Below are positions 1 through 28,809 of a stretch of 32,000 nucleotides of DNA, in pieces (within the stretch, counting starts at the first letter, position 1; the number at the start of each line of letters is the position of its first letter). The notes under the pieces are model-generated. The model was not told the origin of the DNA. It worked only from the letters and a program-made list of their open reading frames with translations, and searched no databases. Both the position numbers and the translations under genes were made by a program. The stretch comes from Erysipelothrix larvae (GTDB lineage: Bacteria; Bacillota_I; Bacilli_A; Erysipelotrichales; Erysipelotrichaceae): the NCBI RefSeq assembly GCF_001545095.1, contig NZ_CP013213.1, positions 240,001-272,000 of the forward strand, read 5' to 3'.

Positions 1-141
1 AAACCGAAGTCCAAAAGGTAAACGTAAACCCAAGACAGTAAATCAAGAGGTTATGAATGATTAAAGATGATGATGCAACTTATCGTATCGTTCAATCTGA
101 TGTTTGAAAAGGACACCCGAAAGTGTCCTCCAAACTTCTTT

Positions 142-167
142 GGGGTAATCATTACCCCATTATTTTT
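142..167 (+). terminator. Rho-independent terminator-like hairpin, probably ending a plus-strand gene that lies left of the window
   Basis: GGGGTAA-tca-TTACCCC stem-loop at 142-158 followed by a T-rich tail. A second hairpin, GGACAC-ccgaaa-GTGTCC, lies at 111-128. Confidence 0.5.
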
Positions 168-336
168 ATAGCTGTAACTAGGTCTTATCCTAAGTTATTT
201 TGTACCGCCCAAACAATGAAGCACAGAGATCATGCTTAATCCTGTGGTTATGTTTAAAAATTATCGAGACATTTTCAAATTCGCTTGATATGGGATTTAT
301 ATTTTTTCGAGAATTCTTATTTATAGATTGAGCAGT

Positions 337-765
337 TCATAAGTCTACATTTTTCCCATCTTCTATATTCACTATCTTTCGGCACTCGTTTGCAACATTG
401 ATGTCATGCGTTACTATTATTGAAGTCATTCCTTGTTGATTTAATGACTTAATCACCCCGATAATCTCTAAAGAAGTCTTTGAGTCCAATGCTCCAGTAG
501 GCTCATCAGCCAAAAGAACTGATGGTTTAGTTACAATTGCCCTTGCTATCGCAACCCGCTGTTTTTGTCCCCCTGAAAGATTTTCTACCTTCTTGTTTGC
601 TAATTGTTCAATATATAATGATTTCAAAGCTTTTAAAGCTTCTTGTTTCACATCAAATATCAATTGTAATAAACCTAGTGATGGCGTTACGAATGTTTCT
701 GTTGTGAGAATGGAAAAAAGAACCTCTCGCGATGAGTGGTTCTTCCCTGTATGCTCAACTTCCAC
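337..765 (-). pseudogene. N-terminally truncated ABC transporter ATP-binding domain lacking Walker A
   Basis: The 142-aa ORF has the ABC signature LSGGQKQR, Walker B LLADEPT, H-loop VTHD and a Q-loop-like FSILTTE, but no P-loop. Roughly the first third of a normal ABC domain is missing. Its GTG start overlaps the TAG stop of the upstream ATPase by 1 nt. Confidence 0.7.
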
Positions 766-1457
766 TACCTTGTTACACCCTGTTCAGGTTTAATAGTTCC
801 ATCGAGCATCTCAATAATCCGATCACACTGGTTTGCGAGCTCAACATTATGCGTGACCATTAGAACAGAAATACCTTCGTTCACAAGTCCTTTAAGAAGA
901 CTGAAAATATCTTTTGAAGTTTCAGAGTCTAAGGATCCAGTGGGTTCGTCAGCAATCACAACCCTAGGTTCATTTATGATTGCTCTTATGAGCGCAACTC
1001 TTTGTCGTTGACCTCCTGATAAATTTTTAACTTTTTTGTCGATAATACTTTCTAAACTTAATTGGCTCAGATACTTTTCCACTCGAGTTCTCTGTTCTTT
1101 TTTTCCAATCTTTTGCGCTGAGTACATGAGTGGAATTCGTATGTTATCAAATACTGAATCGTTTTCAATTAAAGAGAAATCTTGTGTTAAGTAACCAAAA
1201 AATGAATTTCTAAGTGTTGCTTTTTCTTTTTCGCTCAATTCAGTTGTATTCCGCCCATCAATTATGACAGTTCCACGAGTCGCATCCAAAATTAACCCAA
1301 GGATATTGACCAGTGTTGTTTTCCCGCAACCCGATGGTCCTATAATTGCAACGATTTCAGACGCTTCTATGGAAAAGTCTAGATCATCGAGTGCTACAAG
1401 TACACTTTCACCATCATTATATTCTTTTCGAATCTGTTTTGTTTCGACTATTTTCAT
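765..1457 (-). CDS. ABC transporter ATP-binding protein (MacB/FtsE-like ATPase)
   Basis: Full-length 230-aa ORF with Walker [10 protein letters not shown], signature LSGGQRQR, Walker B VIADEPT and H-loop VTHN. The ATGA overlap with the upstream permease gene indicates translational coupling. Confidence 0.92.
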
Positions 1458-2506
1458 TTGAAATCACTCCTTAATAGACTTGATATTTCTGAGTTGAACA
1501 GTGTTTTAATTAGTGGAACTGTGACTATAACTTGACCAATTGCTAATGCACCATAGAAATATGCTGGTGAAATACCGTCTGGCACAACACTCATAATTAC
1601 GGTCGTTAATAGAAGTGCAGGAATTAAATACATGAATAAGACAAGCAGTTCAATTCTAACGATAATTTGCGTGTTGGTTGCGCCATAGAGCATGCTAATT
1701 GAGTATTCTCTTAAATTTGTTCTAACAATGTCATTTAAAATCAAGGTTAGGTTTATCAATACAAAAACGAAGACGAGTGCAAAGAATATAAACAACACTA
1801 AGTCATTCATAAACGTTTGTACAAATGGTGACGATTCATTGACATAGTGTGGATAAATTGTCATTTTATCATTGTCTAAAAGTCCAATTGCTTGGACGAC
1901 GTGGTCTTCATCACTATCATATAGGTGCAAATTGTTTAGGATTTGCTGGTTTTCATCATATGTTAAGTTGCTTATTGAATGTGCATCACTGCTAACAATC
2001 ACAATCGAATTTTGAAGGTCTACACTTCCGTTTCTGCTATCAAAATACGCTTGTTCTTTAAATACATTATTTTCATTTATTTTATATTCACGCATCGTAG
2101 TCTCAAGTATATTTCTACTAATGTTTTTACCATAAAGAATCATATCTTCATCATTCCTTTGGTTTTCTCGACTCATGAAATCACCGAAGAAGTGAATTTT
2201 TATATATGCGTTCTCATGGGTTGAATACCACGAATACGCTTTATAACCTTCTAAAATAGAAATAAGCCCATCTGTCAATTGTTGTTCATCACCTAATTCG
2301 ATGACATTTGATTTGTTCTGAGTCCGTATCCCAATAATGTTGTTTTGTTTCACTGTATTAAGCAGTATTAGCGTCGAAAGTCCACTATGAAATTGATTGG
2401 TAACTAATATGAGACAGAACAATGATATCAGTAATTGAACAATGAAACTGAGTGCAAGTGATTTCACTTTCGCTAAATCCTTACCGACTAATTTGATCAT
2501 TTCCAT
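1454..2506 (-). CDS. FtsX-like ABC transporter permease (bacteriocin-associated type)
   Basis: 350 aa with an N-terminal TM helix, a ~200-aa extracytoplasmic domain and three C-terminal TM helices, which is the FtsX/MacB-type layout. GGAGGTGG Shine-Dalgarno upstream; overlaps both neighbours. Confidence 0.75.
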   Translation of the reverse strand: MEMIKLVGKDLAKVKSLALSFIVQLLISLFCLILVTNQFHSGLSTLILLNTVKQNNIIGIRTQNKSNVIELGDEQQLTDGLISILEGYKAYSWYSTHENAYIKIHFFGDFMSRENQRNDEDMILYGKNISRNILETTMREYKINENNVFKEQAYFDSRNGSVDLQNSIVIVSSDAHSISNLTYDENQQILNNLHLYDSDEDHVVQAIGLLDNDKMTIYPHYVNESSPFVQTFMNDLVLFIFFALVFVFVLINLTLILNDIVRTNLREYSISMLYGATNTQIIVRIELLVLFMYLIPALLLTTVIMSVVPDGISPAYFYGALAIGQVIVTVPLIKTLFNSEISSLLRSDFK

Positions 2507-3448
2507 GCTGTACCACCTCCAGATTTTGTGTTTAAATAAACAGAAACGGACGTTGTGATAAACAAGATGGTTAATGATATAAGTGTACTTATTAGACCAA
2601 TACCGGGTACTTTTTCTGTAATAAACAAAGGGTTCATGATTGGCATGAGAACCAATCCAGCGACCACCACAGAACCAAACTCGATCTTTAATAAAGATTT
2701 AAGGTACATCAACGTAATGGATCCCCTATGACCTCCATATAATCTATTGACTGCAATTCTTCTTCGATCCAAAATGAGATGATGCTTGATGAACATGTAA
2801 ACAATCATACTGATAATAAGATATGAAATAAGCATTATATTTATAGCTGGATTGTTAATTACAACATTAATGAAACTCCGATTGACGGGCATGCTTGATA
2901 CATCATAGATTTCTTGTGGAAAGACGTGTTCCCATTCTTCTGAACATTCTTTGCAGTCAGTTTCAAGATAATACAACCCTTCAACTGTGGTTCCAAATCC
3001 TTCATAGTTCGCAATATAATCAAAGTTTAGGCGCTCATTTTTCATGAATTCCCCCGTAAATTGACTCCGATCGAATCCATACTGTTCAATATTTCTTGAG
3101 AAAAAGGTATTGTTTGAAGTTAATAAAAAGTCAGCACTGCTTGACATAACGCCTTTGAAAACATCCTCGATTCCTCTATTGATTACCATAACCTCAATTC
3201 CATTTGAGTCGTTAGGAACATAAATTATGCTCGTTTTTGTTTGTTGGAACAACGTCTGTATTGCGTTTATTATCAACTCTATTGTCTAGATCAGTAGGAG
3301 CAAGAGATGTTACGTTAATTTTTTTTACATTCTCTCTCAATCCGAACCGATTTATGCGATTATAGTTATATGATACAGAAATATAGACAACTAAAATAAA
3401 CGTTGTTGCTGAATAAAGAAATGACAAGACAAAAGTCTTTATTTTCAT
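2497..3448 (-). pseudogene. FtsX-like permease split by a frameshift
   Basis: The 78-aa ORF (3212-3448) supplies the N-terminal TM helix and the start of the extracytoplasmic domain. The 259-aa ORF (2497-3276) supplies the rest of that domain plus three C-terminal TM helices but has no N-terminal TM. The frames change near 3285-3295, not in a homopolymer. Confidence 0.65.
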
Positions 3449-3529
3449 AAATATCTCCTTACATTATTAGGGTAGAATCTTTTCCATATTCTTTATATTA
3501 ATTGATTACCAACACATTAAAAACTAGAC

Positions 3530-3907
3530 CTATCGGGAATTGATTGATCTATATTCAAATCCATATCTAAACTGGGTTCGTGGAGCCCATGGGTTTAGGC
3601 TATCCCAATACCTGTAGGATCTTGAATAAATGCCTGATCCTCTATATGTATTATTATATAGTTTTCCTGTATCATGTGTTCCTACTGAACCTTCATAATA
3701 TCTTATCTATCCACGACTGTACTCTTTTTGAGAATTATATCGGTATCCTGGAGAAACTTGAACATAACCGTCATAGTAAAGTCCAATAGGAGAACTTTCT
3801 TTTGAAGATGCCCAATTGGGTCCAATATAAGCACTCACGTTTGTAGTAAACATGATTAGCAAAATCAGTGTAAAACTCATCCTATTTAATATTTTTCTTT
3901 TTTTCAT
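3530..3907 (-). pseudogene. Sec-dependent Tyr/Gly/Ser/Arg-rich small secreted protein (bacteriocin candidate) interrupted by an in-frame TAG at 3707-3709
   Basis: Signal peptide MKKRKILNRMSFTLILLIMFTTNVSA with a VSA cleavage motif; AGGGGG Shine-Dalgarno. After the TAG the same frame stays open for 58 more codons (IRYYEGSVGTHDTGKLYNNTYRGSGIYSRSYRYWDSLNPWAPRTQFRYGFEYRSINSR) with the same Tyr-rich composition. As written, the product is 66 aa (3707-3907). Confidence 0.6.
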
Positions 3908-4151
3908 AATACCCCCTGGTTATAATAAGAAATAGAAACCTACCTTTGATTACTATATTACCAATGCAACCAATTTTACACAATTTAAGCTTATTTATGA
4001 CCAAGTTTTTTTATGATCATCGATTTTATTGTACTTTAATAATTTTCAGTGGTCTCGTTTTGAAGAAAGGTTAATCAATTCTTTCGTAGGTATCAATTTT
4101 TTCTTTTAAAGTGAATTAAGTGTGTGAAGTAACGAGAAAAGTCAATGTTTA

Positions 4152-4182
4152 TTGAGAGAATGGCTCTATTTAGTGCTATAAT
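4152..4182 (+). promoter_or_regulatory. Candidate sigma-A promoter with extended -10
   Basis: TGCTATAAT at 4174-4182 and TTGAGA at 4152-4157, with a suboptimal 19-nt spacer. It faces a hairpin-rich untranslated stretch. Confidence 0.35.
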
Positions 4183-4399
4183 CCCGTCTTTGACACCTCA
4201 GAAGCTAAAAAATGGTCTTAGGCCCTTTAAATAAATGGTTTATGACCATTTCTCTTAGTGTGCCAGGCATAGTTCCTATCTAGCTGGTAAAAATCCAGCT
4301 ACAGGTGTTTGCCACTAAGAGTAACGAACCACAATCCAAAAAGCAATGATAATGGGTGAAGGAAGTAGTATAGTGAGTCTTTCGTTCCTACAACTAGAA

Positions 4400-5010
4400 A
4401 CTTGAATAAGGCTAAATTGGGGATGAATTTGTTCAATTGCCTGAAATTAAAGATATTCAAAATATATAAGGAGCAGTACGAGCACATGGTGTACGTAATA
4501 AAGCTTGTATACAATCTTTTGAACAACTTATTGATAAGTAAGAAAACGAAGTTGCACATATATCATCGAGGAAAAATTCAACCAACGTAATATATCTTGG
4601 TTCACAACCTAAAGATAATCGTAAGCGATTTAGTGAAATAGCAGGAACCCAATTGGTTTGGAGCAAATCTTGAAAAGACTCTATTGAAATTGATCGCGTA
4701 ACCCCTGAACGCTTAGGGAAATATGAAAAAAGAAGATCGCTGTAAACAACGATTGATTGGATCCCTTTGATTTTTAAATTAACACGAAGGGAAAAGTATA
4801 CCTATGCCCGAGAACCAATTTGGGCAGAAAAATCGAAAGAAAAGAAAAAGCCGATTTCTTCAATATCCATGAGGAATAAGAAATACGTGAAAACTCCGCT
4901 GTGACAAGAAGAAACGCACGCAACTTAACTGAAATAGTAAATGATGGCAATAGAAATACAGCTGAAGCAATTGAGAGAAGAAAAAAATAGGAACTGGGCA
5001 TATTAAACGT
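4400..5010 (+). pseudogene. Degenerate ORF of unknown family, probably mobile-element or plasmid derived
   Basis: One reading frame stays protein-like for ~200 codons (...YLGSQPKDNRKRFSEIAGTQLVWSKS*KDSIEIDRVTPERLGKYEKRRSL*TTIDWIPLIFKLTRREKYTYAREPIWAEK...) but is broken by several in-frame stops. I do not recognise a family. Confidence 0.25.
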
Positions 5011-5346
5011 CAGTATTATTATATGGAGCTCCAGGTATCAAAGTTTCTGTTCAGGTTAACAGGAAACTAGCTTTGGAGGTATCGGTTGGCGTGACTGCGA
5101 CAATTTATGCATTAGGTACAACTAGATTGTTTTATTGAGGGTCCGTTAGTGGAACATAATTAAATTTTGTGTGATAATACGGGTAAGAAGCAAGCTTATG
5201 TTAAGTTGCAGACACTTTGCTCATAAGTGAGATGCACCAATTTTACAAAGAATCAATGCAAACAATGGTCAAGTGCGAAAGTGGGTGCATTCTTGATTAC
5301 GAAAGAAAAAGGGATGAAAAGATCGGTATTTAATTTGGGGGTGAAT

Positions 5347-6507
5347 ATGAAAACATTTTGTAAAAAGCAAACAACATTTTTAATAATTAGTGTAGTATTT
5401 TTGGTACCATTCTATATAAGTGTCTATCAGTTTCTTTTAGGCAAAATGCTACCTGTAGATGGTAGCGCAGTTCATTTGTCGAAGTTTTTATTGTTTCTTT
5501 TTTCAACATTTGCATTATTCGGTCTTATTGAATATGTTTTTCTCTTGTTGAGATCTTTATTCAAAGTGTTTGTTTATTTTTGTTGGTTCAAAACTATCCA
5601 ATATTATGTAATATATCCGTTCATATTTGACGGGAATATAAAGTTTAGACCGTTAAGACTTTTAAATAGTAAAGAGACGCAAAGAGATGTGTTTTTACTC
5701 AATCTATTAAGAGAAATACCAGAGGGGTTTAAAGAGGAGAAAATGCAGAAGCGGTTTAAAACAGGAATACGCATTAATGAAGTATCATCAATATTTTCTA
5801 TGACTATCATCGCTTTGTTTCTTTATCCGAATTTTGGTTTCTTTGTTATTCCATTGTTCATTGGAAATGTCATACTCACGATTATGCAGGGATATGCTCT
5901 TTATGATTACAGGCTAGTAGGTCCAAAGCAGGTTGGTACATCACTAACGCTAGAAGAATACTTCTTGACAGGAAATCTGTCGCCAAGTTTAGGTGTAAAG
6001 AATTATCGTCATTATCTTGAGCGATATATTGAAACCCAAGAGACAAGCCACATTGAGATATTGTTAAGTGTCTTTGAAAATTATATGTTTCTCTATCTCT
6101 GCGAAGCAACTAGTGGTGAAGCACTGGGTTCAGATGACGTGAAAACGATCTATTCGAAAATTGTTAGTCCATCACTAAATGACTTGTATTCGATAAAAGG
6201 TATTACGAGACAATTAAGAAATCGTCAATTGTTAACATTAATAGGTTCAATTGGTAGAAAATATGATAAAACTGATTATATAGAATTGTACTTTCAGTTA
6301 AGCCAACAATATGTTTTAGATTTACATAATAATAGTAAAGTTCCGATTTCTGATGCCATCAGTGAGACATTTGTCTCTTTTGATAATTTTGTTAGGAAAG
6401 ACGGACACTTGACAACAACAAATCCGTATTTAGTTCCGCTCTTTGGTGCACTTTCTTATGAGATGAAAATCGAGAAAGAATTAATAGATTATTTGTTGCT
6501 GAGTTAG
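5347..6507 (+). CDS. Hypothetical polytopic membrane protein with a C-terminal soluble helical domain
   Basis: 386 aa counted from ATG 5347, preceded by GGGGGTG. Several N-terminal TM helices. No motif I can recognise. Confidence 0.6.
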   Translation: MKTFCKKQTTFLIISVVFLVPFYISVYQFLLGKMLPVDGSAVHLSKFLLFLFSTFALFGLIEYVFLLLRSLFKVFVYFCWFKTIQYYVIYPFIFDGNIKFRPLRLLNSKETQRDVFLLNLLREIPEGFKEEKMQKRFKTGIRINEVSSIFSMTIIALFLYPNFGFFVIPLFIGNVILTIMQGYALYDYRLVGPKQVGTSLTLEEYFLTGNLSPSLGVKNYRHYLERYIETQETSHIEILLSVFENYMFLYLCEATSGEALGSDDVKTIYSKIVSPSLNDLYSIKGITRQLRNRQLLTLIGSIGRKYDKTDYIELYFQLSQQYVLDLHNNSKVPISDAISETFVSFDNFVRKDGHLTTTNPYLVPLFGALSYEMKIEKELIDYLLLS

Positions 6508-6955
6508 GGGAATCAAAGTCACATAAATATGCTATTGTTACGATGTCAATGAGGTATGTGTACCATTTCAACTCTGGATCTAAAGATCCTTTTTTGTAAT
6601 TGAGAAAGGGAAGACATCGCTCCTTAACAAACGAATACAGGAACTTGATTTGCTGTGCTATAGTAAGCTGCAATAAGTTTCCGTTTGTGATTAACACCTA
6701 CAGATTGATATGATATATGCACAAGAGAAAACGCCCTGTTAGGGACGTCTTGTTCGTAGTGATTAGTTATACCCTACGTTTGAATCGTTTACTATACTAT
6801 ATGTAACACGTTATCTGAAATCATTCAGTTTCAAACCCAAGTTCACACGCCACTTTTCATTTAGAACCATGAAGTGAAAAGAAAAGAATTACTCTTCGAT
6901 GATGTTAGGGGCAAAGATATTTCCGAAGATAATATTAATAGAATAGGAGCAAGCT

Positions 6956-7690
6956 ATGACGAATACTGAGTATGGACATTTGCTTAGCAACTTTGAATAT
7001 CTTAAATTTATAGGGATTCAGAATCATACAGAAGAAACAATTGATTTTGTAAACAACTTCAGGTATACAGATGTCCAAGGCTTAATAAAAATGACAGACT
7101 ATGAGGAGTGGTATCGTGAAGCCAATATAATAAAGGCGACGGTGATAGTTGGAGGATTCCCACACTTTAAGGGATTGGATGACTTTGACTTTCAAGAAAA
7201 TATTAATAAAGATCAAATTATTGATTTCATAACGCATCGCTTTATCCACGAGAATCGGAACATTGCATTCATGGGTTCTAGTGGTGCAGGGAAAACGCAC
7301 TTAGCAGCGTCGAATGGTATTTTATTTGCCAAAAAGCAGGAATCGCATACTACATTAAATGTCACGCACTTATCACTCAATTGAAGAAAGCAAAGCTGGA
7401 AAACAGATTTGAAGCAGAATCAAACGTTTCGTGAAATACAAATGTCTATTCATCGACAAGATTGGTTACTTGCTCTTCAATGCAGCGAATTTATAGATGT
7501 TATTCCAACTGGTCGATAAGTATCACGCGTCAGAGTCAACAATCTTCACCACAAACATGAATTTCTCAAAATGGGAAGATGTATTTAGTAATCCGACAAT
7601 CGCTCATTCAACATTTGTCCGTGTTCTTCGCCACGCTCATGTGTCTATATCGCAGGAAAATCATGTAAGTTTTAGGATTATTATGATGAG
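6956..7690 (+). pseudogene. istB: IS21-family IstB helper ATPase remnant (frameshifts plus an in-frame TAG)
   Basis: Walker A GSSGAGKTHLA lies in the first frame. LITQLKKAKLENRFEAE, LFIDKIGY (degenerate Walker B) and MLFQLVDKYHASESTIFTTNMNFSKWEDVFSNPTIAHSTFVRVLRHAHV lie in other frames. There is a TAG at 7494-7496. No IstA transposase lies upstream. Confidence 0.8.
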
Positions 7691-7805
7691 AATGGAGGCG
7701 CAGATCAATTGCACATACTACATACTAATGTTGACAGGTATAGCTAAGTTAATCTTGTATGTTACCAAACTCCTTATCATAATTATACCTAAAGGGGGGC
7801 ATCGA

Positions 7806-8087
7806 ATGAAAAAAAGAATAATACTCAAGTTATCATTGGTCTTAATTTCAGTTTTGGTTATTTCAAGAACAGCAGAACTTATTGACTGTAATAGGCTTTC
7901 AAAAATGAAACCTCCATTACTTGCGATAAATACAAGGAATAATACGAATGTAGGATTGGGTTATACAATACAATTCGATCCCCTTTATCCCCACCAAATA
8001 ACAGGGGTGGTTCTATGGGGAGGGGATCAGAATAGAATCAGTGATCCATATTACGCATATTGTTTATGCTATTATAATTTTAAATAG
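7806..8087 (+). CDS. Small secreted or membrane-anchored hypothetical protein
   Basis: 93 aa from ATG 7806 with an AAAGGGGGG Shine-Dalgarno and an N-terminal hydrophobic signal/anchor (MKKRIILKLSLVLISVLVI). The ORF-track call 7497-8087 is a run-through from the IstB remnant. Confidence 0.45.
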   Translation: MKKRIILKLSLVLISVLVISRTAELIDCNRLSKMKPPLLAINTRNNTNVGLGYTIQFDPLYPHQITGVVLWGGDQNRISDPYYAYCLCYYNFK

Positions 8088-8711
8088 TCATAGTGCAAAG
8101 CTGTACGCAATTTAAAAATCACAATGATGTATTATGGTGCTTCGAAATACACAGCGTATATTTTCGTTGATATTTAATTTAATGCGTGATAAGGGCATGG
8201 CATAATTGTGAAACGATTGAAACTCTTTGGGTTTGAGGTGTATAAACTCTTCCGACTACAAAATGGGATTTTGATAGTACTAGTAGAAAATTTGAAGCAG
8301 TTAATATAATTGGTTTATATCTTGTTCTTATCGCAATCTAGGCATTTCAGGTTTATAAATTAAAACAGATAGGACGTGAAAAGAATGATAATTTTGTAGA
8401 ATTGTGCTCGGCGTGCTTTTTTAATTATTGATGAAATTTAGGGCTGGCCTTTTATTCTTATTAGAGAACCTATCGTTCAGATATTGGGTTCTTTTTATTT
8501 TGGGAAGGGCATTTGTTTGGATCGTGATGAAAAAACTGTTGCAAATTTTGATTAAATACATGTGAGTCTGTGACATTTTAAGTTGTTTCGACCATTTATT
8601 AGTGAACCAATCAACCGTTGATATTTGATGCATCGAAAGAATGATGATTAACATTGATGTAAGTTCACAGATAATAGCTTAAATGCGGATGGTGTAGAAA
8701 ATGAGGGTTTG

Positions 8712-9199
8712 ATGGAAAATCGGTTGAAGACACAAAATACCAGGGCTTATAAACTCATTGAGCGGTATAAAAGCACGGTCTATTGAATAGCACTGATACG
8801 TGTTGGAAATCGATATGATGCGGATGATATATTTCAAGTAGTATTCATGTCGTATTGTAAGAGACCGCGAATTTTTGTGAGTGAAGGTCATTGTAAAGGC
8901 TGGCTAATCAAGACAACATTGATTAGACGCCAAAACTGATTTGAAAGTAAACCGCGGAATGTTAGTGAGCTGACTGAGGAATATGATGTTAAGTGTTCTA
9001 CGCATGATGCCTATCAATTTGTTTTGGATGGGTTGTTGAAGCTTGATGATAAGTATCGAGCGGAGCTGTAACTATACTATTTTGAAGCATATTTGACGAA
9101 AGAAATTGACTCAATCTTAAATGTAAAAGAAGGTACAGTATGGATACAGATGAAATGTGGCAGGGAAAATTAAAAAAAATTGGAGGAATTGAGAGATGA
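8712..9199 (+). pseudogene. ECF-type sigma-70 family factor inactivated by three in-frame stops and a terminal frameshift
   Basis: Region-2-like AYKLIERYKSTVY*IALIRVGNRYDADDIFQVVFMSY and region-4-like LYYFEAYLTKEIDSILNVKEGTV. In-frame stops are TGA (8784), TGA (8937) and TAA (9069). There is a frame change in the A-run near 9165-9175. The original stop overlaps the next ATG (ATGA). Confidence 0.75.
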
Positions 9200-9903
9200 A
9201 TAAAAGAGAAATTGAGTTTTTGAAATCTTCATTTGAAACCAGTGATGCACTTGTGGAAAAAACGAAACAACGTGTACAAGTTGCTAAAAAGAAACAGCAA
9301 GTGGGTTTTGGGTTTGTGCTTGTGATGGTACTTGTTGTTGGTTTAGCTATTATTCAAAGTATGTTACCAAAAGGAGACGAAGTACAAGGTATTGTTGGAT
9401 TGCCCATCGAAGATTCATTTATTGTACCGGATGCTTGGCAAAAAGATGGATCGGTTTCACTGATGTTGGATTATCAAATCGAGGGGCTTGATGATTGGTT
9501 TAAACATGACATAGATGCAATTGTGATTGCGAAAGTAGTCGATATTGGAGAATCAAGATTAAGTGATGAGCTTATTAATGTTATTACGGATGTATCGGTA
9601 GAAGTGCTTGAAACAGTTGTAGGGAGTGTCGAAGGAACACTGACTGTACGCGAAATAGGGTTTAGTGCGTATACGGAAATGTCCCAGCATTCATGGTATG
9701 CAACACGGGAGGGTGGCGTTTATGTGCTTCCCCTTGCGAACGAAGAGGAAGGATGGCGGATTGAATATGATTTGTTTGTCCTCTTTGAAATTGATGAAAA
9801 TGGAAATACTGATTCACATTCCAATTATGAGCAATTTCGTAAATACAATGGAGCGCCTTACACAACATTAATTAATGATATTAAGGCATTTATGCATGAG
9901 TAG
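9196..9903 (+). CDS. Anti-sigma-factor-like single-pass membrane protein
   Basis: Intact 235 aa with a short cytoplasmic N-terminus, one TM helix (VGFGFVLVMVLVVGLAII) and an extracytoplasmic domain. It sits directly downstream of the sigma pseudogene and is translationally coupled to it. Confidence 0.55.
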   Translation: MNKREIEFLKSSFETSDALVEKTKQRVQVAKKKQQVGFGFVLVMVLVVGLAIIQSMLPKGDEVQGIVGLPIEDSFIVPDAWQKDGSVSLMLDYQIEGLDDWFKHDIDAIVIAKVVDIGESRLSDELINVITDVSVEVLETVVGSVEGTLTVREIGFSAYTEMSQHSWYATREGGVYVLPLANEEEGWRIEYDLFVLFEIDENGNTDSHSNYEQFRKYNGAPYTTLINDIKAFMHE

Positions 9904-9906
9904 TGG

Positions 9907-10379
9907 TTAAACCTCGATAGAGTGCATCAAATCAAGGATGTATTTCAAAGAAATAAATGAATTCAGTAAGCAGACCACCTTTGTATCACCAAGAGGTTCA
10001 TGCTTTTGCAAGTATCCCAATTGAAATCTATGCATCAAAAAAGACTTTTGAAACGTTGGCACTAAAATCATCCAAGGAGTATTCCTCATTGATCTAATTA
10101 TACGCCTTACACTGAAACTGAGTTGACTTACCATTGTTATCGTGAGTATAGTCATGGGGAGCACCACATCGTGGACAAGAAGTCTTCTTAGGAATCGCTG
10201 AACCTTTGCGTCTGGTCCTTACCTTTTCGTTCAAAGCATTCAGCCTTCGCTTGTTCAAAAGTTATGGGAGTATGTTGTTTATGGATATCAGGTGGTTGAT
10301 CAACTCGAAAGTATCGGTAAGGATCGGATACTGGAGATGGGTTTTTATCTTTAGGTAGGAAACGAATAAGAAAAAACAA
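9907..10379 (-). mobile_element. Transposon-protein remnant with a Zn-ribbon, possibly the C-terminal tail of TnpB/OrfB
   Basis: Three frames are needed to read ...ITFEQAKAECFERKGKDQTQRFSDS* / KKTSCPRCGAPHDYTHDNNGKSTQFQCKAYN* / INEEYSLDDFSANVSK. The CxxC...CK pattern followed by a D..ANV-like motif resembles the TnpB Zn-ribbon/RuvC-III region. The family assignment is tentative. Confidence 0.3.
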
Positions 10380-10664
10380 TGTTTGAAAATTGATTTAGAA
10401 ATGAAGTTTAAAATTGAAAGCTGAAGTGATATAATCTTAACCATGATAGTAGTTCTCCTATTGTGGTTAGTTGCTTACAATTGTAGAGAATTGCTACCTC
10501 TTTTTGAATATGAGGGCATTAAATGTTTGTAAGTCCACCCAAACTAAGGGGGGGAAAGACAAAAAATGATATAAAACAGTAGTGAATAAAGGGGTCGTGA
10601 GCTGTTTTACTGGTTGATTTACTAATCAGTTTTGACACAACCTATTAAGTACAAGGGGGATTTT

Positions 10665-11024
10665 ATGATATATGAAGACGGAACTGTAATAGAAGAATCT
10701 GATTTGACAGCTATCTATTCTAGAAGAATTGAAAAACACGAAAATTATGAAGTGTGGCAACACCCTTATATCAGGGGAGATGTTTTAGAGAATGATCCTG
10801 ATTTTCAGCTTGTTTATTTTAATATAGACGGTTCTGTAGACGCTTATCATGTGTCAGATAAAGCATATAGATTTAAAGATCTAGTTCATTTAGGGAAACT
10901 GCAACTTGTCTACCATGATATTACTTTAGAGTTCTACGAATACACGCACCTAGTAAAAGATGTGTGGTCAAGTGAGTCGGATTTTTACTTTTCAGAAATA
11001 TTAAAGAAAAAGGAAAGGGAATAG
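10665..11024 (+). CDS. Hypothetical cytoplasmic protein
   Basis: 119 aa from ATG 10665, preceded by AAGGGGGA. No recognisable motif. Confidence 0.5.
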   Translation: MIYEDGTVIEESDLTAIYSRRIEKHENYEVWQHPYIRGDVLENDPDFQLVYFNIDGSVDAYHVSDKAYRFKDLVHLGKLQLVYHDITLEFYEYTHLVKDVWSSESDFYFSEILKKKERE

Positions 11025-11493
11025 TAAGGGAGTGTTGCAAAAAAGCACTCATAAATTTACGTTTTATTTAAGTAAATTAGTTGCATGATTATTGCATTCT
11101 CCTTAGCTTTTACCGTGGTTACTATTACAGCATATGCAGCGAATAGGTGGATAGTATAAAAACATCATGGAAAGATTATCTGGGGTCTTTAGATAATCAT
11201 GCAAAATCTTAGTATCATACCCTTTGATAATGAATCTTCCCATTTAGATTAAGTGCGATTAGACAATATGCAAGACCAACTTTGACAAAATCAAATAAGA
11301 TGTGAGGGAGTATTTGCGCAAGATCATAGTCATGGTGGTTTTCTCAGAAGTTTTTTTAAAACGTGCATGGGTTTATTCTTCATACACCTTCTTTAAACGA
11401 GACTTCATGTTACAATCACCAATAATAAATCATGCTAGTAGGCATTATATATGATTGCTTTGTATGGTATGATTATCACAAAAAGAGGTGCTT

Positions 11494-12336
11494 ATGTCGA
11501 AGAAAAAAAGAAAACTATGCGTATTTATTGGTGTTGTTGGCATCTGTATGTGGTTGTATTGGGGAAACCATGCGATTCAAACGACCACGATTACAGTGGC
11601 AGTTAATGAAGCATCACAAGGGTTGCAGGGTTTTACGATTGTACAGGTTTCAGACGTTCATAATGCATCATTTGGGTCACAACAACACAAACTCATTGAT
11701 CGCATTAAGAAGGAGTCGCCAGATATTATCGCAATCACAGGTGATTTAATTGATTCAAGTCATACTGATGTTGAGGCTGCGATGACACTGATTCGGGGAC
11801 TCACTGATTTTGCTCCAATATACTTTATAACAGGGAATCATGAAGCATGGACGCATCAATATGCGGACCTAAAACAACAATTACTTGAAGCAGGCGTATT
11901 TATCTTAGAAGATACCGATACGATCATCGAGGTGAATGATGTTTCTATTCAGCTTATTGGATTAAGTGATCCAGATTTTACAGGAGGACTTGATGTAATT
12001 GAACGGGAAGGTTTCTTATCTAAGAAACTGGAACAGCTTATTGAAACGAAACATGACTATTCGATTGTGCTATCACATAGACCAGAGTTTTTTGATGTCT
12101 ATACATCATCCGGTGTTGATCTAGTACTTACGGGACATGCACATGGTGGTCAAGTACGGTTGCCGTTTTTGGGCGGACTTGTCGCCCCTAATCAAGGGTT
12201 GTTCCCTGATTATTCAGAAGGGGTTTATGAAAGGGACAAAACACGGATGGTTGTGAGTCGAGGATTGGGAAATAGTATCATTCCTTTACGCATCAATAAT
12301 CGACCTGAGCTTGTGGTGGTTCGCTTAGGATCATAA
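11494..12336 (+). CDS. Membrane-anchored metallophosphoesterase (YkuE/calcineurin-like family)
   Basis: Motifs VSDVHN, GDLID, GNHE and GHAHGG in order, with an N-terminal TM helix. ATG 11494 follows a GAGGTG Shine-Dalgarno. Confidence 0.9.
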   Translation: MSKKKRKLCVFIGVVGICMWLYWGNHAIQTTTITVAVNEASQGLQGFTIVQVSDVHNASFGSQQHKLIDRIKKESPDIIAITGDLIDSSHTDVEAAMTLIRGLTDFAPIYFITGNHEAWTHQYADLKQQLLEAGVFILEDTDTIIEVNDVSIQLIGLSDPDFTGGLDVIEREGFLSKKLEQLIETKHDYSIVLSHRPEFFDVYTSSGVDLVLTGHAHGGQVRLPFLGGLVAPNQGLFPDYSEGVYERDKTRMVVSRGLGNSIIPLRINNRPELVVVRLGS

Positions 12337-12359
12337 AGTAGGTTTTAGATGAATGGAAT

Positions 12360-12386
12360 AAAAAAGCTCCTTGTACGGAGCTTTTC
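12360..12386. terminator. Bidirectional rho-independent terminator between convergent genes
   Basis: Perfect AAAAGCTCC-ttgtac-GGAGCTTTT hairpin with A/T runs on both sides. It lies between the metallophosphoesterase stop (12336) and the GGT stop (12397). Confidence 0.85.
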
Positions 12387-12396
12387 AATTGGATTA

Positions 12397-14010
12397 CTAA
12401 TAAGCGGCCAGTGTTCCATCGGCACGGGATTCTGTGCCTCCAACATAAACGCCATTCTTTTGTTTGATGATGATTTGTCCACGTCCATACATCAAAGATT
12501 CATTCGCATAAATGACATTGTGTCCCAGGTTTAAGAGTCCTAAAGCGATGCTCTTTGGGAAGTCGGGTTCAACTTCAATTGTTTTATCCTTGAGCCATTG
12601 CCAACGCGGTGCATCCAATGCATCTTGTGGATTAAGGTGGAAATCAATGAGGTTTGTAACTGCCTGTACGTGTGCTTGAGGTTGAAGGGGTCCTCCCATA
12701 ATTCCAAAAGGTCCTAGATGGACATCATCTTGACTTAAGAATCCTGGGATAATGGTATGGTAAGGTCGTTTAAATGGTGCGAGTTCATTAGCATGACCTT
12801 TCTTTAGGTTAAATTGCGCACCACGGTTATGAAGTGCGACGCCATAACCTGGTACAAAGCACCCTGAACCAAATCCAGTGTAACAACTTTGTATGTATGA
12901 TACCATGTTTCCTTCGTTATCTGCAGTTGCAAGATAAACGGTTCCACCACCAGGTGCTTCATCAAATGTTGGCATGCATGCTTCATTTAAATCAATTACA
13001 GCTGCTCTTTTCTTTGCGTATTCTTTTGACAAGAGCATGTCGAGATTTACATGAGTGAATTTTGGATCTCCAATGTATTGGAGTCCATCACTAAATGCAA
13101 GCTTGATGGATTCGATAATCTTGTGGTATGAGTCGACATCTTTCCCATTACTTAGTTCGAAGTTTTCTAAGATGTTAAGTGCTTCTAAAACAACGGGACC
13201 TTGGGTATTTGGTGGTAGTTGCCACACATCGTAACCTCGGTAATTTGTGGATAAGGGTTGAACAAATTCAACGTCAAATTTTTCTAAATCACTTTTACGT
13301 AAATACCCATTGTAATCCTTCATAAAGGCATCAATTGCATCCGCAATTTCACCTTTATAGAATGCATCGGAATTCGTTTCACCGATAAGTCGCAAAGTTT
13401 TTGCGTGATCTTTGAGGACAATCTTATCCCCAACTTGAGGGATACCCTCATGGATTTTAAAAGTATCAAACCATGTCTTCAGCTCTGGGTGATTTTTGAG
13501 TTGGTCACCGTAAGTTTTCGCGTATCGTTTGAATAGCCTGCCTACAGTTGGGGCTACAGCATAGCCGTTTTCTGCAAGAAAAATCGCCGGTTCAAGCACA
13601 TCAATCAGAGGCAATTTTCCAAATTTTTTGGATAATGCTGCCCATGATTTTGGAATACCAGGTACAGTAACGGGTGTCACACCAAAGAGATCAATCGTAT
13701 CACCTTTTTTACGTAATTCATCTGCGTTAATGAGTTCAGGTGCAAAACCAGAACCATTTAGGCCATATAGTTTTCCTTGATAACTGATGATTGCGAATGC
13801 GTCACCACCAATACCATTTCCTGAAGGTTCACACACGGTAAGGGTTGCGGCTGTTGCGATTGCGGCATCAATGGCGTTCCCCCCTTTTTTTAAGATCTCA
13901 AGTCCCGCTTGTGCAGCATAGGGGTTTGAGCTTCCTACCATTCCATTGGCACCATAAACGAGGTTTCGCTGTGATGTATAGTAGTGAACGTATGGGTTAA
14001 ATTTTAACAT
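12397..14010 (-). CDS. ggt: Gamma-glutamyltransferase family protein without a signal peptide
   Basis: 537 aa with NAIDAAIA, GIGGDAF and the autoprocessing/nucleophile context PGGGTVYL. There is no N-terminal hydrophobic signal. GGAGG Shine-Dalgarno. Confidence 0.92.
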   Translation of the reverse strand: MLKFNPYVHYYTSQRNLVYGANGMVGSSNPYAAQAGLEILKKGGNAIDAAIATAATLTVCEPSGNGIGGDAFAIISYQGKLYGLNGSGFAPELINADELRKKGDTIDLFGVTPVTVPGIPKSWAALSKKFGKLPLIDVLEPAIFLAENGYAVAPTVGRLFKRYAKTYGDQLKNHPELKTWFDTFKIHEGIPQVGDKIVLKDHAKTLRLIGETNSDAFYKGEIADAIDAFMKDYNGYLRKSDLEKFDVEFVQPLSTNYRGYDVWQLPPNTQGPVVLEALNILENFELSNGKDVDSYHKIIESIKLAFSDGLQYIGDPKFTHVNLDMLLSKEYAKKRAAVIDLNEACMPTFDEAPGGGTVYLATADNEGNMVSYIQSCYTGFGSGCFVPGYGVALHNRGAQFNLKKGHANELAPFKRPYHTIIPGFLSQDDVHLGPFGIMGGPLQPQAHVQAVTNLIDFHLNPQDALDAPRWQWLKDKTIEVEPDFPKSIALGLLNLGHNVIYANESLMYGRGQIIIKQKNGVYVGGTESRADGTLAAY

Positions 14011-18010: not shown

Positions 18011-18469
18011 ATGGATCGTAAAACATTCAAGGTATTTATGAGTTTTCTTGTGTTGTTAGTTGGCTGTGGTCAGACCAATAGTGCTGTAAAAGATTTTAAG
18101 GATTTTGGATTAAGCGCACCGAAGAGTTCGATTCGTGAGGATGTGTATCAAGAAGATCGTTAGTTTGGTGAAGCAAGTGATTATATCATTTATGAATATG
18201 ATGATGCGTATGTTCAAATGTTGGATGCAGTTGAACTTGAATCATGGACTGTTCAAAAAACACAGTATAATCAAGTTGCATCTGGAAGTTTGCAATCGAT
18301 GCAGGGAACGTTTGATTCAATAGATTTCACTCAAAAAGCGAAAGCTTGTGGTTCCTATGACGGATACTTAATAGAAACAAAGTATCCAAGTACAAATCCT
18401 GAAACGCAGGCATATATCATGGTATGTGAAGAAATAGGAGAGATGATTTTTATTTTTAGTTATTGGTAA
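18011..18469 (+). pseudogene. Lipoprotein gene interrupted by an in-frame TAG at 18161-18163
   Basis: MDRKTFKVFMSFLVLLVGCGQ carries the lipobox LLVGC. After 50 codons a TAG is followed in the same frame (18011 and 18218 are both position 2 mod 3) by 101 more open codons ending at 18469. Confidence 0.7.
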
Positions 18470-18486
18470 AACAATTATGGGGGAAT

Positions 18487-19458
18487 ATGCGCAGAGTTCA
18501 TGTTGATGAAGATGATGTAACACGGATGAGTCTTTTTGAGAAGGCAAAAATTTTAAGAAAGCAAAATCGTATCTTAATTTGGTATCAGTTGATTGCTTTA
18601 GGCGTTTTTGTTGCGATTAAATTAATCGTGTCTCAGTATTTAGTTAATGAAAATCATAATTGGATCAGTGGCGAACTCAGTGAACTCGAACTTGATGTAT
18701 GGCTTAGTATTGGTGGAATGCTTGTTGGAATTGGATACGTCTTTATTGTGAAGCACACTCAGAGGTATCAGTGGTGGAATGAGCGTCCCCAAACAATGAA
18801 TGTTGTTTCGTTTTTGAAAATACTCACAGTGATGGGTGGACTTCATTTAATTACGACTGTTGTACTTACGGTAATCGAGTATCTATGCAATACCTTTGGA
18901 TATTCTATCTATGTGGACCTCATTATTTTTGATGAGGTTTTATTTAGCATTCCATTAATGCTGGGAGGGATAATCATTGCGCCACTGGGTGAAGAATTAT
19001 TGTTTCGGGATGTGTTCATCAATCCAATTATTCGATTTGGGAAAGTATTTGCAATCGTCGCATCATCAATCATGTTTTCTTTGATTCATGGAAATATCCC
19101 ACAATCTGTCAATGCTTTTTTTATTGGAATTGTACTGGGATATGTGGCGATAGAATATTCAGTAGGGTGGGCAATGATTTATCACTTTATTAACAATGCA
19201 ATACTGAGTTATGCTTTTACATACCTCATATCCAGATATCGTGTAGAACAAAGGCAAAGCATCAGTTTTTACTTTGAACTGACTCTGTTTTTCATTGGTT
19301 TATACTTCGTTTTGAAACACAGTCATGATATCAAAATGTACATCAGAGATAATAAGACCCATCAGGGAAGCCATTTATATATGTTTGTTTCAATTAGTGG
19401 AATGCTCCTAATCCTTATGGGTATTCTTTCGATGGTATTATTAGTTGGAAAGCGATAA
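18487..19458 (+). CDS. CPBP-family intramembrane glutamic endopeptidase (CAAX protease/Abi-like)
   Basis: Motifs GEELLFRD, FSLIHGN and HFINN in a polytopic membrane protein. The start is uncertain (ATG 18487 after GGGGGAA, or TTG 18463). Confidence 0.88.
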   Translation: MRRVHVDEDDVTRMSLFEKAKILRKQNRILIWYQLIALGVFVAIKLIVSQYLVNENHNWISGELSELELDVWLSIGGMLVGIGYVFIVKHTQRYQWWNERPQTMNVVSFLKILTVMGGLHLITTVVLTVIEYLCNTFGYSIYVDLIIFDEVLFSIPLMLGGIIIAPLGEELLFRDVFINPIIRFGKVFAIVASSIMFSLIHGNIPQSVNAFFIGIVLGYVAIEYSVGWAMIYHFINNAILSYAFTYLISRYRVEQRQSISFYFELTLFFIGLYFVLKHSHDIKMYIRDNKTHQGSHLYMFVSISGMLLILMGILSMVLLVGKR

Positions 19459-20092: not shown

Positions 20093-20815
20093 GTGGAACC
20101 AACTAGAGATTTATTGACAGATCAAGAAGATGATTTGAGTTTTGTGGAATTATACGAAGCCATCAAAAAGAAGATGATACTGATTTTGATCGTTGGACTT
20201 ATATGTGGGGGATGTGCATTTGGGTTTGCATCGGTGTTCATTCGCCCGATTTACGAAAGCAGTGCAATTTTGATTGTGAACAATCGAAGGGATGAATCAA
20301 ATCAAGCAATTACTTACGATGAAATTACATCAGCACAAAATCTAGCACCTGTCTATAGCATAATAATCAAAAGTAATATCGTCATGGGAAGACTCATCGA
20401 GAACTTGTCATTGGATATGACAACCAATGAATTAGCGTCCAAAGTGACCGTATCAGCAATTGATAAAACACAGGTTATTAATGTTGCAGTAAGGGATGAG
20501 AATCCAAACAATGCATTACTTTACATACAAGAAATTGTTGAAGTTGCACCTGAAATAATAGTAGAACTCGTTGAAGCAGGTTCGGTTGGCGTAGCATCTA
20601 TTCCACAGCTTCCGATTAATCCAGTATCACCAAACGTAAAAATGATTACAATTATGGCGTTTGTTTTTGGTGTGATGATATCAATTGGGGTTGTTCTATT
20701 AGGTCATATCTTAGACAGAACCTATCGGTTACCAGAACCTCTGGAGAAAGAACTGGGGATTCCAGTTATTGGAATAATTCCAAATTTTGAACAAGTAAGT
20801 CGAGGATTACGTTGA
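20093..20815 (+). CDS. Wzz/CpsC/CapA-like polysaccharide chain-length determinant (BY-kinase transmembrane modulator)
   Basis: 240 aa with two TM helices flanking an extracytoplasmic domain and the C-terminal VIGIIPNF kinase-activating tail. GTG start 5 nt after AGGAGG. Confidence 0.9.
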   Translation: MEPTRDLLTDQEDDLSFVELYEAIKKKMILILIVGLICGGCAFGFASVFIRPIYESSAILIVNNRRDESNQAITYDEITSAQNLAPVYSIIIKSNIVMGRLIENLSLDMTTNELASKVTVSAIDKTQVINVAVRDENPNNALLYIQEIVEVAPEIIVELVEAGSVGVASIPQLPINPVSPNVKMITIMAFVFGVMISIGVVLLGHILDRTYRLPEPLEKELGIPVIGIIPNFEQVSRGLR

Positions 20816-21540: not shown

Positions 21541-21560
21541 CGTGATGACTTAAAAAAGAA

Positions 21561-21779
21561 ATGATCATAGAGACTAAAACACACATTATGGTAGATCAAT
21601 AAATCGAGATATATATATCAAAAGACCATGTTGAAAAAAATTGCACTGCATGGATAGGCGATGGGTGATAGCCCAAACAAGCACTTTGAAACTATAAGGA
21701 AGAACGTTGATTTCCCGGGTTATATCTTTTTGATTTAAAGATTATGACTCCCGTAAAGCATGTTCACATTAAGCGTTAA
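21561..21779 (+). pseudogene. Heavily eroded remnant of a PHP-family phosphotyrosine phosphatase (CpsB/CapC)
   Basis: Short collinear matches in different frames: MIIETKTHIM (cf. MIDIHSHI), HFETIRKNV, GYIFLI and TPVKHVHIKR (cf. TPVIAHIERY). The 370-nt gap is about half the length of an intact gene and full of stops. Confidence 0.4.
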
Positions 21780-21911
21780 TCTGGTCAGTATGGAAGGGGA
21801 AAAATACTGATACAGTGAAAAAAATAAGAGTTTTGAAATGTGCATTCCATGATGAAACCCTTATAAAGTGAAAGAATATTTGGAAGTTATTATTAAAGGT
21901 GGAACTAAAAA

Positions 21912-24393: not shown

Positions 24394-24435
24394 TTGAATT
24401 AATTAACGCAACTGGATTAATAGATGGAGGATCGT

Positions 24436-25296: not shown

Positions 25297-25322
25297 ATCA
25301 TGTTAAATAGAAAGAGAAAAAT

Positions 25323-28786: not shown

Positions 28787-28809
28787 TAGAGAGGAAATGA
28801 CTGCTTCTG

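Follow-up and report, generated by a model that had tools for sequence, protein, structure and literature searches.

A nonsense pseudogene at the head of a decaying, possibly bacteriocin-like four-gene cassette in Erysipelothrix larvae

Introduction

The lactococcin 972 family of bacteriocins supplies the closest described counterpart to the locus considered here, which is found on a 32,000-nucleotide (nt) stretch of Erysipelothrix larvae DNA and is headed by a gene for a small secreted protein. In the reference operon of this family, that of Lactococcus lactis plasmid pBL1, a 91-amino-acid (aa) bacteriocin is followed by a 648-aa ‘bacteriocin-associated integral membrane family protein’ and then by a 207-aa ATPase, with these latter two genes (orf2-orf3) specifying a putative immunity transporter of the ATP-binding cassette (ABC) type (PMC4055356). 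Lactococcin 972 (Lcn972) itself, according to literature cited in that same paper, binds lipid II and inhibits septum formation. Mediterrocin, of Mediterraneibacter gnavus, is a further member, its mature protein being 89 aa long and its partner being of the DUF1430 type (PMC12345188). Models exist for each component, i.e., PF09683 and TIGR01653 for the bacteriocin, TIGR01654 and DUF1430 (PF07242) for the membrane partner, and TIGR03608 for the ATPase. Additional comparisons are based on 68 metagenome loci of the family, which display the same three-gene layout and in most of which the partner is 648-688 aa long.

Here the term ‘window’ is used to describe the whole of the 32,000-nt stretch, with coordinates counted from its first letter. 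An earlier note, made from those letters, had described an open reading frame (ORF) with a signal peptide, a 40-aa mature part, a TAG, and an open run of 58 further codons, all of which are present, on the minus strand. Taken as a whole, these features and their surroundings are best explained as a nonsense pseudogene of a secreted protein, one heading a toxin/immunity-like cassette that is now decaying, and this is an explanation which we consider to be reasonably probable.

The secreted-protein gene and its premature stop

The gene begins with an ATG at 3907-3905 on the minus strand. Its parts are these:

3912 to 3917, minus strand: Shine-Dalgarno-like AGGGGG, 4 nt 5' of the ATG, as read from the sequence
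3707 to 3907, minus strand: truncated ORF, 66 codons plus a premature TAG at 3709-3707, the 5' half of the secreted-protein pseudogene
3830 to 3907, minus strand: Sec signal peptide, codons 1-26, MKKRKILNRMSFTLILLIMFTTNVSA, followed by YIGPN, as read from the sequence
3530 to 3706, minus strand: 58 post-stop codons and the original stop TAG (3532-3530), the 3' half of the ancestral 125-codon gene

The product of the 66-codon ORF thus consists of MKKRKILNRMSFTLILLIMFTTNVSA followed, beyond the end of the signal peptide, by YIGPNWASSKESSPIGLYYDGYVQVSPGYRYNSQKEYSRG. Codons 1-26 read as a basic n-region, a hydrophobic h-region, and a V-x-A cleavage motif. The pre-stop mature part is 40 aa long, with 7 of the 40 being Tyr, and the 58 sense codons which come after the stop encode IRYYEGSVGTHDTGKLYNNTYRGSGIYSRSYRYWDSLNPWAPRTQFRYGFEYRSINSR, with 9 of the 58 being Tyr. 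In the source record the 66-aa stump is carried as a protein (P0005). A promoter scan found no sigma-70 consensus promoter 5' of the gene on the same strand, a terminator scan found no terminator inside the operon, and Rfam and tRNA scans of the window gave no matches.

The earlier note had judged the 58-codon open run to be unlikely by chance. By itself, the run is merely mildly unusual, that is, suggestive: its chance as calculated from base composition is ~0.019, and runs of such length between stops make up 3.1% of all those found in the six frames of the window. The point nevertheless stands, as carried instead by homology. The post-stop run is real, that is, because full-length relatives align across the stop in one frame.

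Those relatives came from a search of the read-through sequence against 5.8 billion proteins, which returned four, of 111-132 aa: a 125-aa protein of Erysipelothrix aquatica that is 64% identical to the window over its full length (P0002, locus tag ERAQ111492_05455), a 127-aa protein from a metagenome (P0003), a 132-aa protein from a sequencing-run assembly (P0004), and a 111-aa protein, 97% identical to the window, from a sequencing-run assembly as well, there on contig L005 (P0001). A scan of a genome collection for orthologues yielded a single short E. aquatica contig and nothing else. All four relatives have Trp at the position of the window's stop. The earlier note had proposed comparing this codon among relatives, and at the level of DNA it is TGG both in E. 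aquatica (GGT TGG ATA, versus GGA TAG ATA in the window) and in L005. The latter is 98.9% identical to window positions 1-13851, and at base 3708 it has G where the window has A. With G in L005 and TGG in relatives, the stop therefore is a single TGG-to-TAG transition (G-to-A, at codon 67). More broadly, the codon-67 column is aromatic in 53 of 65 family sequences (Y in 29, W in 19, H in 3, and F in 2).

The codons which follow the stop have the properties of coding sequence. As compared with E. aquatica, the proportions of nonsynonymous (pN) and synonymous (pS) differences are 0.185 and 0.83 for codons 68-125 versus 0.196 and 0.91 for codons 27-66, i.e., the two halves of the mature protein are indistinguishable in their signature of purifying selection. 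Nine family members, 30-64% identical, give in tblastn single high-scoring segment pairs running straight through the TAG. Indeed, the family's best-kept motifs are found in the post-stop half, DTG[KR].Y and D.LNP.APKT.F.YGF, which may also be written as DTGK.Y and YRYWDSLNPWAP.TQFRYGF. Coding conservation of the 58 downstream codons, the absence of which the earlier note had named as speaking against its proposal, is therefore clearly seen from both pN/pS and tblastn. Because relatives align over the stop with Trp or TGG, and because post-stop codons are under purifying selection, the gene is shown, as far as sequence comparison can do so, to be a nonsense pseudogene of a 125-codon ancestor. 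Its stop is recent, as codons downstream of it still resemble coding sequence. Of the two possibilities which the earlier note had offered, truncation of a ~99-aa secreted protein consequently is the one that is borne out, given TGG (Trp) in close relatives and 58 downstream codons that are conserved as coding.

Genes downstream of the secreted-protein gene

The earlier note had also placed the gene at the head of an operon of FtsX-like membrane proteins and ABC ATPases. Two membrane genes and an ABC ATPase do follow, though the first of the membrane genes is frameshifted and the second ATPase is a C-terminal fragment:

2497 to 3448, minus strand: permease 1 pseudogene, FtsX-like, four transmembrane (TM) helices, frameshift near 3260
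1454 to 2506, minus strand: permease 2, 350 aa, intact, 49% identical to that of E. aquatica
765 to 1457, minus strand: ABC ATPase of LolD/MacB/FtsE type, 230 aa, intact, PF00005 at E 3.9e-34
337 to 765, minus strand: remnant of a second ABC ATPase, 142 aa, with signature motif, Walker B, and H-loop but without the Walker A half

Permease 1 reads as a 78-aa ORF (3448-3212), with the rest in another frame (3261-2500). In tblastn with the intact, 317-aa permease 1 of E. aquatica, residues 1-63 thus align in frame -1 and residues 64-317 in frame -2. L005, which is an independent assembly, has permease 1 split identically, into 78 aa and 230 aa, and because of this the lesion is both real and older than the split of the two strains. 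The intact ATPase is 75% identical to its E. aquatica orthologue. The 142-aa remnant, which directly abuts the intact ATPase gene, aligns solely with the stretch 127-224 of the E. aquatica ATPase, being 52% identical to it, and may be what is left of a second cassette or of a duplication.

In both permeases a single TM helix at the N-terminus is separated by a loop of 180-230 aa from three more at the C-terminus, as seen with a Kyte-Doolittle scan of 20 permeases, with the loop of permease 2 being about 200 aa long. A motif, R..I..L.G.s, is kept after TM2. The two permeases are paralogous (hhalign probability 97.4%, E 1.2e-11). For the window's own permeases there is no Pfam match to FtsX (PF02687), and among 13 cassette permeases FtsX is matched weakly in 6, with a best E of 8.7e-4 and all of them below 25.5 bits; a precomputed ‘FtsX (weak)’ match exists for one lineage, L091. 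The label ‘FtsX-like’ accordingly is to be read as based on three things, namely predicted topology, the R..I..L.G.s motif, and an ATPase of LolD/MacB/FtsE type. What the cassette combines is four TM helices, a large loop, predicted to be extracytoplasmic, that separates TM1 from TM2, and a cognate ATPase of that type, which is the combination by which FtsX-type transporters are recognized.

By its sequence the window's cassette is dead twice over, from the nonsense codon and from the frameshift of permease 1. It is a relic, that is, and not a working bacteriocin locus.

Comparison with the sister strain

The secreted-protein gene of L005 has lesions of its own. A single base pair is deleted at each of the positions equivalent to 3904 and 3588 (codon 107), and N23K and W32C are present too. 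The first of these deletions falls within the run of A found after the start codon (ATGAAAAAAAG, window 3898-3904), which is one base shorter in L005 such that the signal peptide is out of frame. This difference could be slipped-strand variation or instead a homopolymer sequencing error.

Differences between the window and L005 are unevenly distributed:

1 to 3460: 2 single-nucleotide polymorphisms
3461 to 4240 (peptide gene plus flanks, ~780 bp): 47 differences, including 6 single-base insertions or deletions (indels)
7000 to 10500: about 2% differences
4300 to 7000 and 10500 to 13850: about 0.1-0.3% differences

The peptide gene and its flanks thus are the most diverged segment. Relaxed selection alone fails to explain this unevenness, because permease 1 was dead already in the common ancestor. 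Its likeliest causes are recombination with a diverged allele or, alternatively, run-level assembly noise. A diversity-generating retroelement was considered as well, in light of an RVT_1 gene abutting the cassette in E. aquatica and the divergence of the peptide gene, and was rejected: no template repeat of the gene is found in window positions 3300-9000, there is no reverse transcriptase in the window (a neighbouring 426-aa ORF has no RVT match), and indels are found among the differences from L005, which show no specificity for A.

The secreted-protein family and its predicted fold

The ancestral precursor is 125 aa long, i.e., a 26-aa Sec signal peptide plus a mature protein of 99 aa. As restored, this mature protein has a mass of 11.8 kDa and a pI of 9.55 and contains 16 Tyr, 11 Gly, 10 Arg, and no Cys. 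It is, in other words, cationic, Tyr-rich, and Cys-free.

When all of 1.84 billion cluster representatives were searched with the profile (E<=0.001), a family of 66 representatives emerged, nearly all of which are 110-167 aa long and possess an N-terminal signal peptide, with the basic and hydrophobic N-terminal segment being kept across the 65-member alignment. Named matches are confined to Bacillota. All of them, i.e., those from Erysipelothrix aquatica, from Tissierella, and from a Clostridia metagenome-assembled genome, are called ‘hypothetical protein’. Pfam and NCBIfam scans found no match for any of the 65 aligned members, a PDB sequence search with the family profile returned nothing significant, and a literature search found no paper on the family. 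The suspicion of the earlier note that the family might be undescribed thereby is upheld: as judged from these searches it is both undescribed and uncurated.

Structure prediction, also suggested by the earlier note, depends upon alignment depth. With 5 sequences, AlphaFold gives an unusable model (predicted local distance difference test score, pLDDT, of 46.6). With 65 sequences, AlphaFold2 (AF2) confidently predicts an all-beta protein of seven strands (pLDDT 87.9, predicted template modelling score 0.76), at residues 24-28, 31-37, 44-51, 56-58, 61-72, 94-101, and 111-121, with the signal-peptide segment as a low-confidence helix. The numbering of this model is valid for the window's protein, there being no gap in the alignment of that protein with its E. 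aquatica counterpart. In Foldseek, neither the PDB nor a set of viral models (BFVD) yielded a match at E<=0.001, with the best TM scores, 0.39-0.45, being to generic beta-sandwich modules. An origin from phages or from anti-phage defence was rejected, there being no PHROGs or PADLOC matches and no significant BFVD structural match.

Relation to the lactococcin 972 family

The earlier note had seen in this locus the architecture of lactococcin 972 clusters, and as compared with the pBL1 operon and the metagenome loci that parallel is confirmed. Membership in the family is a different matter. PF09683 and TIGR01653 do not match, at E<=1, the 66-aa ORF, the 125-aa read-through, or any of the 65 family members (Pfam, NCBIfam), such that the hidden Markov model (HMM) search called for by the earlier note, with both forms of the protein, comes out negative. 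The partner profile, likewise named in that note, fares no better: the window's permeases have no DUF1430 or TIGR01654 match, nor is DUF1430 seen at E<=10 among the 13 cassette permeases. Profiles were compared by hhalign as well, with the 65-sequence profile set against two lactococcin 972 profiles, one of 2 sequences and one of 22 non-redundant homologues from the 68 metagenome loci. Versus the latter the probability is 9.5%, with just the signal peptide aligned. A resemblance of 10-12 residues at the C-terminus, APKTxFxYGF versus EKASFYYNF, has an hhalign probability of 0.5-2%. The Lcn972 structure, 2LGN, a small beta-sandwich, does not appear among the 50 best PDB matches that Foldseek listed. 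Membership failed HMM and profile-profile tests and lacked Foldseek support, and it was rejected on the basis of the Pfam/NCBIfam scans, hhalign, and Foldseek versus the PDB. By these sequence comparisons the secreted protein is not a member of the lactococcin 972 family.

The transporter differs in this regard. Family profiles are needed to see this, because both BLASTP and single-sequence hhalign of the permeases versus pBL1 orf2 are marginal only. The permease 1 profile, as compared with 20 lactococcin 972 partner proteins, gives hhalign probabilities of 81-87% (E 4e-6 to 1e-5) and is collinear with their N-terminal half. Among 18,950 NCBIfam models the best for the window's ATPase is TIGR03608 (L_ocin_972_ABC), at 213.1 bits versus a cut-off of 254.85. 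TIGR03608 is also the top model for 9 of 10 cassette ATPases, i.e., the window's plus 8 of the 9 others, at 207-221 bits and thus below cut-off; the genuine pBL1 ATPase (orf3) scores 253.4 bits. From these profile scores, the cassette's transporter probably is distantly related to that of lactococcin 972.

A conserved and mobile cassette

The order of secreted protein, permease 1, permease 2, and ATPase is kept in ten lineages including the window, the survey covering every lineage with a long enough contig (E. aquatica, L007, L011, L012, L014, L016, L088, L090, L091, and the window). Protein sizes across these lineages are, respectively, 125-164, 316-338, 349-378, and 223-235 aa. Neighbourhoods between lineages are unrelated. 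The cassette thus adjoins thrS and metNIQ in L012, parAB and gidB in L016, pnp in L090, an RHS fragment in L014, and a decayed IS21-like element in the window, and in E. aquatica it lies among recombinase and reverse-transcriptase genes. Because the same four genes sit in unrelated neighbourhoods, the cassette, on comparative grounds, is seen to behave as a self-contained, horizontally mobile accessory module of Erysipelotrichia and Clostridia.

In E. aquatica (contig L002, 4631-9663 and 13278-17095), serine recombinase/resolvase genes, a fragment of an rve integrase, and a DUF6037 gene are found around the intact cassette, surroundings which suggest carriage on an integrative mobile element. 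The RVT_1 reverse transcriptase there, 408 aa, is immediately upstream of the cassette and is not conserved in the window. The window's IS21-like element (5227-8087, plus strand) has its IstB-type ATPase split into 142 aa (6956-7384) and 196 aa (7497-8087). Preceding these is the 426-aa ORF, at 5227-6507, which has no Pfam, PHROGs, or PADLOC match. Its exact sequence is absent from the protein collection, and in L005 a 408-aa version is called. In the P0003 loci (L006, L008, L009, and L010) a pair of short ORFs (68 and 69 aa) is found immediately before the secreted-protein gene, and in L088 an HTH_3 regulator comes ahead of the cassette, all of which are possible cassette-specific regulators.

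Farther along the window, on the plus strand, are two features that have no evident link to the cassette. One is a gene for a CAAX/Rce1-like membrane protease (18463-19458), of a family often tied to bacteriocin immunity. The other is a capsule or exopolysaccharide locus (20093-29874), with Wzz, a tyrosine-kinase-type ATPase, Polysacc_synt_2, and several GT4 glycosyltransferases.

Proposed function and its alternatives

Intact cassettes, as opposed to the window's relic, may encode a Sec-exported, unmodified, cationic bacteriocin-like protein along with a protective, heterodimeric FtsX-type ABC transporter, a proposal by analogy to which we give roughly even chances. Under this proposal, which architecture suggests, the secreted protein would be toxic to related Gram-positive bacteria, with their envelope as its target. 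Permease 1 and permease 2 would form a heterodimer served by the LolD/MacB-type ATPase. Such a complex would keep the producing cell safe from its own toxin, which it would expel or dislodge from that cell's membrane or cell-wall interface, as has been proposed for orf2-orf3. The basis of the analogy is gene order, the four-TM modules that are fused in the pBL1 partner and separate here, the weak kinship of permease 1, the preference of the ATPases for TIGR03608, the cationic and Cys-free nature of the protein, and the sparseness of its family. Decay would have begun with the permease 1 frameshift that is common to both strains, followed by separate lesions of the toxin gene (the W67 stop in the window and L005's own), a pattern in keeping with the loss of selection on an accessory toxin/immunity module. 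A more specific version of this idea, somewhat short of an even chance, is that of an undescribed group of Sec-exported, ~11-kDa, Tyr-rich, cationic beta-domain bacteriocins of Erysipelotrichia and Clostridia, unrelated in sequence to lactococcin 972, with their producers shielded by a split, heterodimeric FtsX-type ABC transporter distantly akin to the immunity transporter of lactococcin 972; the same immunity machine, that is, might have been recruited by a second and structurally distinct toxin.

A number of points weigh against a bacteriocin. Neither HMMs, profile-profile comparison, nor Foldseek reveals a relation of the secreted protein to lactococcin 972. No member has a known antimicrobial activity, those with a name being called ‘hypothetical protein’ and no paper on the family having been found, and FtsX/MacB-type transporters also serve roles that do not involve toxins. 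All 13 cassette permeases stay under the Pfam thresholds of FtsX and DUF1430, the permease profile has no significant PDB sequence match, and the permease 2 profile gives no alignment to the lactococcin 972 partner family. TIGR03608, moreover, leads LolD by only 4-20 bits, and does so under its cut-off. The nonsense codon, for its part, depends on a single base in a single assembly.

The main rival to a bacteriocin, which we view as unlikely though well short of negligible, is that the secreted beta-domain protein is instead the extracytoplasmic partner, effector, or cargo of a mechanotransmission ABC complex resembling FtsEX, MacB, or LolCDE, without a role as toxin, and serving perhaps in cell-wall remodelling, envelope-stress defence, or the release or placement of surface proteins. 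The window's copy would still be a pseudogene. Such a partner would be in keeping with the FtsX/MacB-type topology and large extracytoplasmic loops of both permeases, with ATPase scores versus LolD, MacB, and FtsE that nearly equal those versus the lactococcin-972-group model, and with a secreted protein that is unlike any known bacteriocin; strict 1:1:1:1 linkage of the genes in all loci is equally expected of the subunits of one machine. Known FtsEX partners, however, are peptidoglycan hydrolases with catalytic domains, and the 99-aa domain has no catalytic-domain match. It has no lipobox Cys, either, and therefore is not Lol-type cargo. In addition, the cassette is sporadic, linked to mobile elements, prone to decay, and found in unrelated neighbourhoods, all of which fits an accessory competition module better than it does a housekeeping envelope machine.

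The remaining alternatives concern the stop itself. That TAG does not truly terminate, with full-length protein still being made due to a base-call error in the assembly, read-through by a suppressor tRNA, or recoding, is improbable. The downstream frame is perfectly open, to be sure, and a single base (A versus G, 3708) separates TAG from an intact codon in a strain that is 98.9% identical, but the window is from a 2.495-Mb contig of an NCBI genome record, suggesting an assembly of finished quality, and G-to-A substitution is atypical of homopolymer-type sequencing errors. Relatives, furthermore, use ordinary Trp (TGG) rather than a recoded amber codon, no tRNA gene is found within the window, we know of no report of pyrrolysine use in the Erysipelothrix lineage, and the confirmed frameshift of permease 1 shows a locus that truly is decaying. 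Less probable still, and indeed barely credible, is that the 40-aa mature peptide of the 66-aa precursor is the current functional product, its activity either kept or gained, this being the other possibility that the earlier note had offered. Start codon, Shine-Dalgarno sequence, and signal peptide are all retained, and the 66-aa protein is annotated in the source record. The stop, though, removes the family's best-conserved motifs and in the model lies inside strand 61-72, such that the truncated product is without half of that strand and without strands 94-101 and 111-121, i.e., three of seven strands are affected. Because a central beta-strand is cut, the 40-aa remnant is predicted to be unable to form the fold, and a folded 40-aa current product is, by the model, very unlikely. 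Against this product as well are the still coding-like downstream codons and thus recent stop, the frameshifted partner permease 1, and a sister-strain allele with other disabling lesions; P0005, too, is alone in its 90% cluster, though the family matches do include shorter ones, of 69-114 aa.

Significance

For Erysipelothrix larvae the outcome is a correction of annotation: the ‘protein’ of 66 aa is all that the stop leaves of a 125-codon gene, which is followed by an operon that is broken as well. The window's instance as such is an ordinary pseudogene. What is new is the uncurated and uncharacterised family that is behind it, that is, a conserved four-gene module with 66 cluster representatives for which neither Pfam nor NCBIfam has a model. 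Judging from its layout and transporter, it may encode a second class of Sec-dependent, unmodified, protein-sized bacteriocins, to be placed beside the lactococcin 972 family. If antimicrobial activity is real, then gut and animal-associated Firmicutes would have yielded a new antimicrobial scaffold, self-immunity by FtsX-type ABC transporters would gain a natural system for comparison, and genome-mining tools, which now miss such loci, would have two new models. Though the window's copy is dead, the locus thus is a clear and testable lead, with its putative bacteriocin function proposed from analogy.

Comparison with known systems

With the type VII ABC transporters MacB, LolCDE, and FtsEX, the cassette shares a four-TM permease with a large, predictedly extracytoplasmic TM1-TM2 loop and, particularly with LolC/LolE/LolD, the use of two different permease subunits along with one ATPase. 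Cassette ATPases score ~200 bits versus LolD, MacB, and FtsE models. Unlike these transporters, the permeases have a weak, sub-threshold FtsX match (6 of 13) and no PDB sequence match, and there is neither a membrane-fusion or adaptor protein nor a lipoprotein cargo. Instead, the cassette always possesses a dedicated small secreted protein.

Enterocin P, divergicin A, and propionicin T1 are Sec-dependent, unmodified bacteriocins which have a signal-peptide leader instead of a double-glycine leader, lack modification genes, and are encoded by a small dedicated locus. They are 40-65 aa long, mostly helical or pediocin-like, and have a small immunity protein. Common to both these and the window's family are the signal-peptide leader, the lack of modification genes, and the small locus, whereas the window's family is a predicted 99-aa, all-beta domain with an ABC/FtsX-type partner. 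In the Pfam and NCBIfam libraries searched it has no sequence similarity to other Sec-dependent bacteriocins.

The likeness to lactococcin 972 goes further. In both cases the order of genes is a small protein with a Sec signal, then one or more FtsX-like membrane components, and then one ABC ATPase, without modification genes. In both, too, the secreted protein is unmodified, Cys-free, and beta-rich (here by prediction), and mature sizes are comparable: 66 aa for Lcn972, 89 aa for mediterrocin, and 99 aa for the window's family. Cassette ATPases are 35-41% identical to lactococcin 972 ATPases. The difference is that the membrane component here is specified by two genes rather than as one 648-688-aa partner. 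By hydropathy, the pBL1 partner has 4+4 hydrophobic segments, i.e., it looks like two FtsX-like modules that have been fused, and permeases 1 and 2 are separate genes, with four segments each. In a genuine lactococcin 972 locus of Streptococcus salivarius plasmid pSsal-YU10 (L019, 4460-6431) the annotation divides the partner between a pair of overlapping genes, for 252 aa and 416 aa (DUF1430), in place of a single protein of ~650 aa; this is either a frameshifted copy or a naturally split one and so bears on the interconversion of split and fused forms. A Sec-dependent, bacteriocin-like protein with an FtsX-type ABC partner therefore is a kind of system that is already known, and what the present family represents as new is the family of its putative toxin fold and its split permease.

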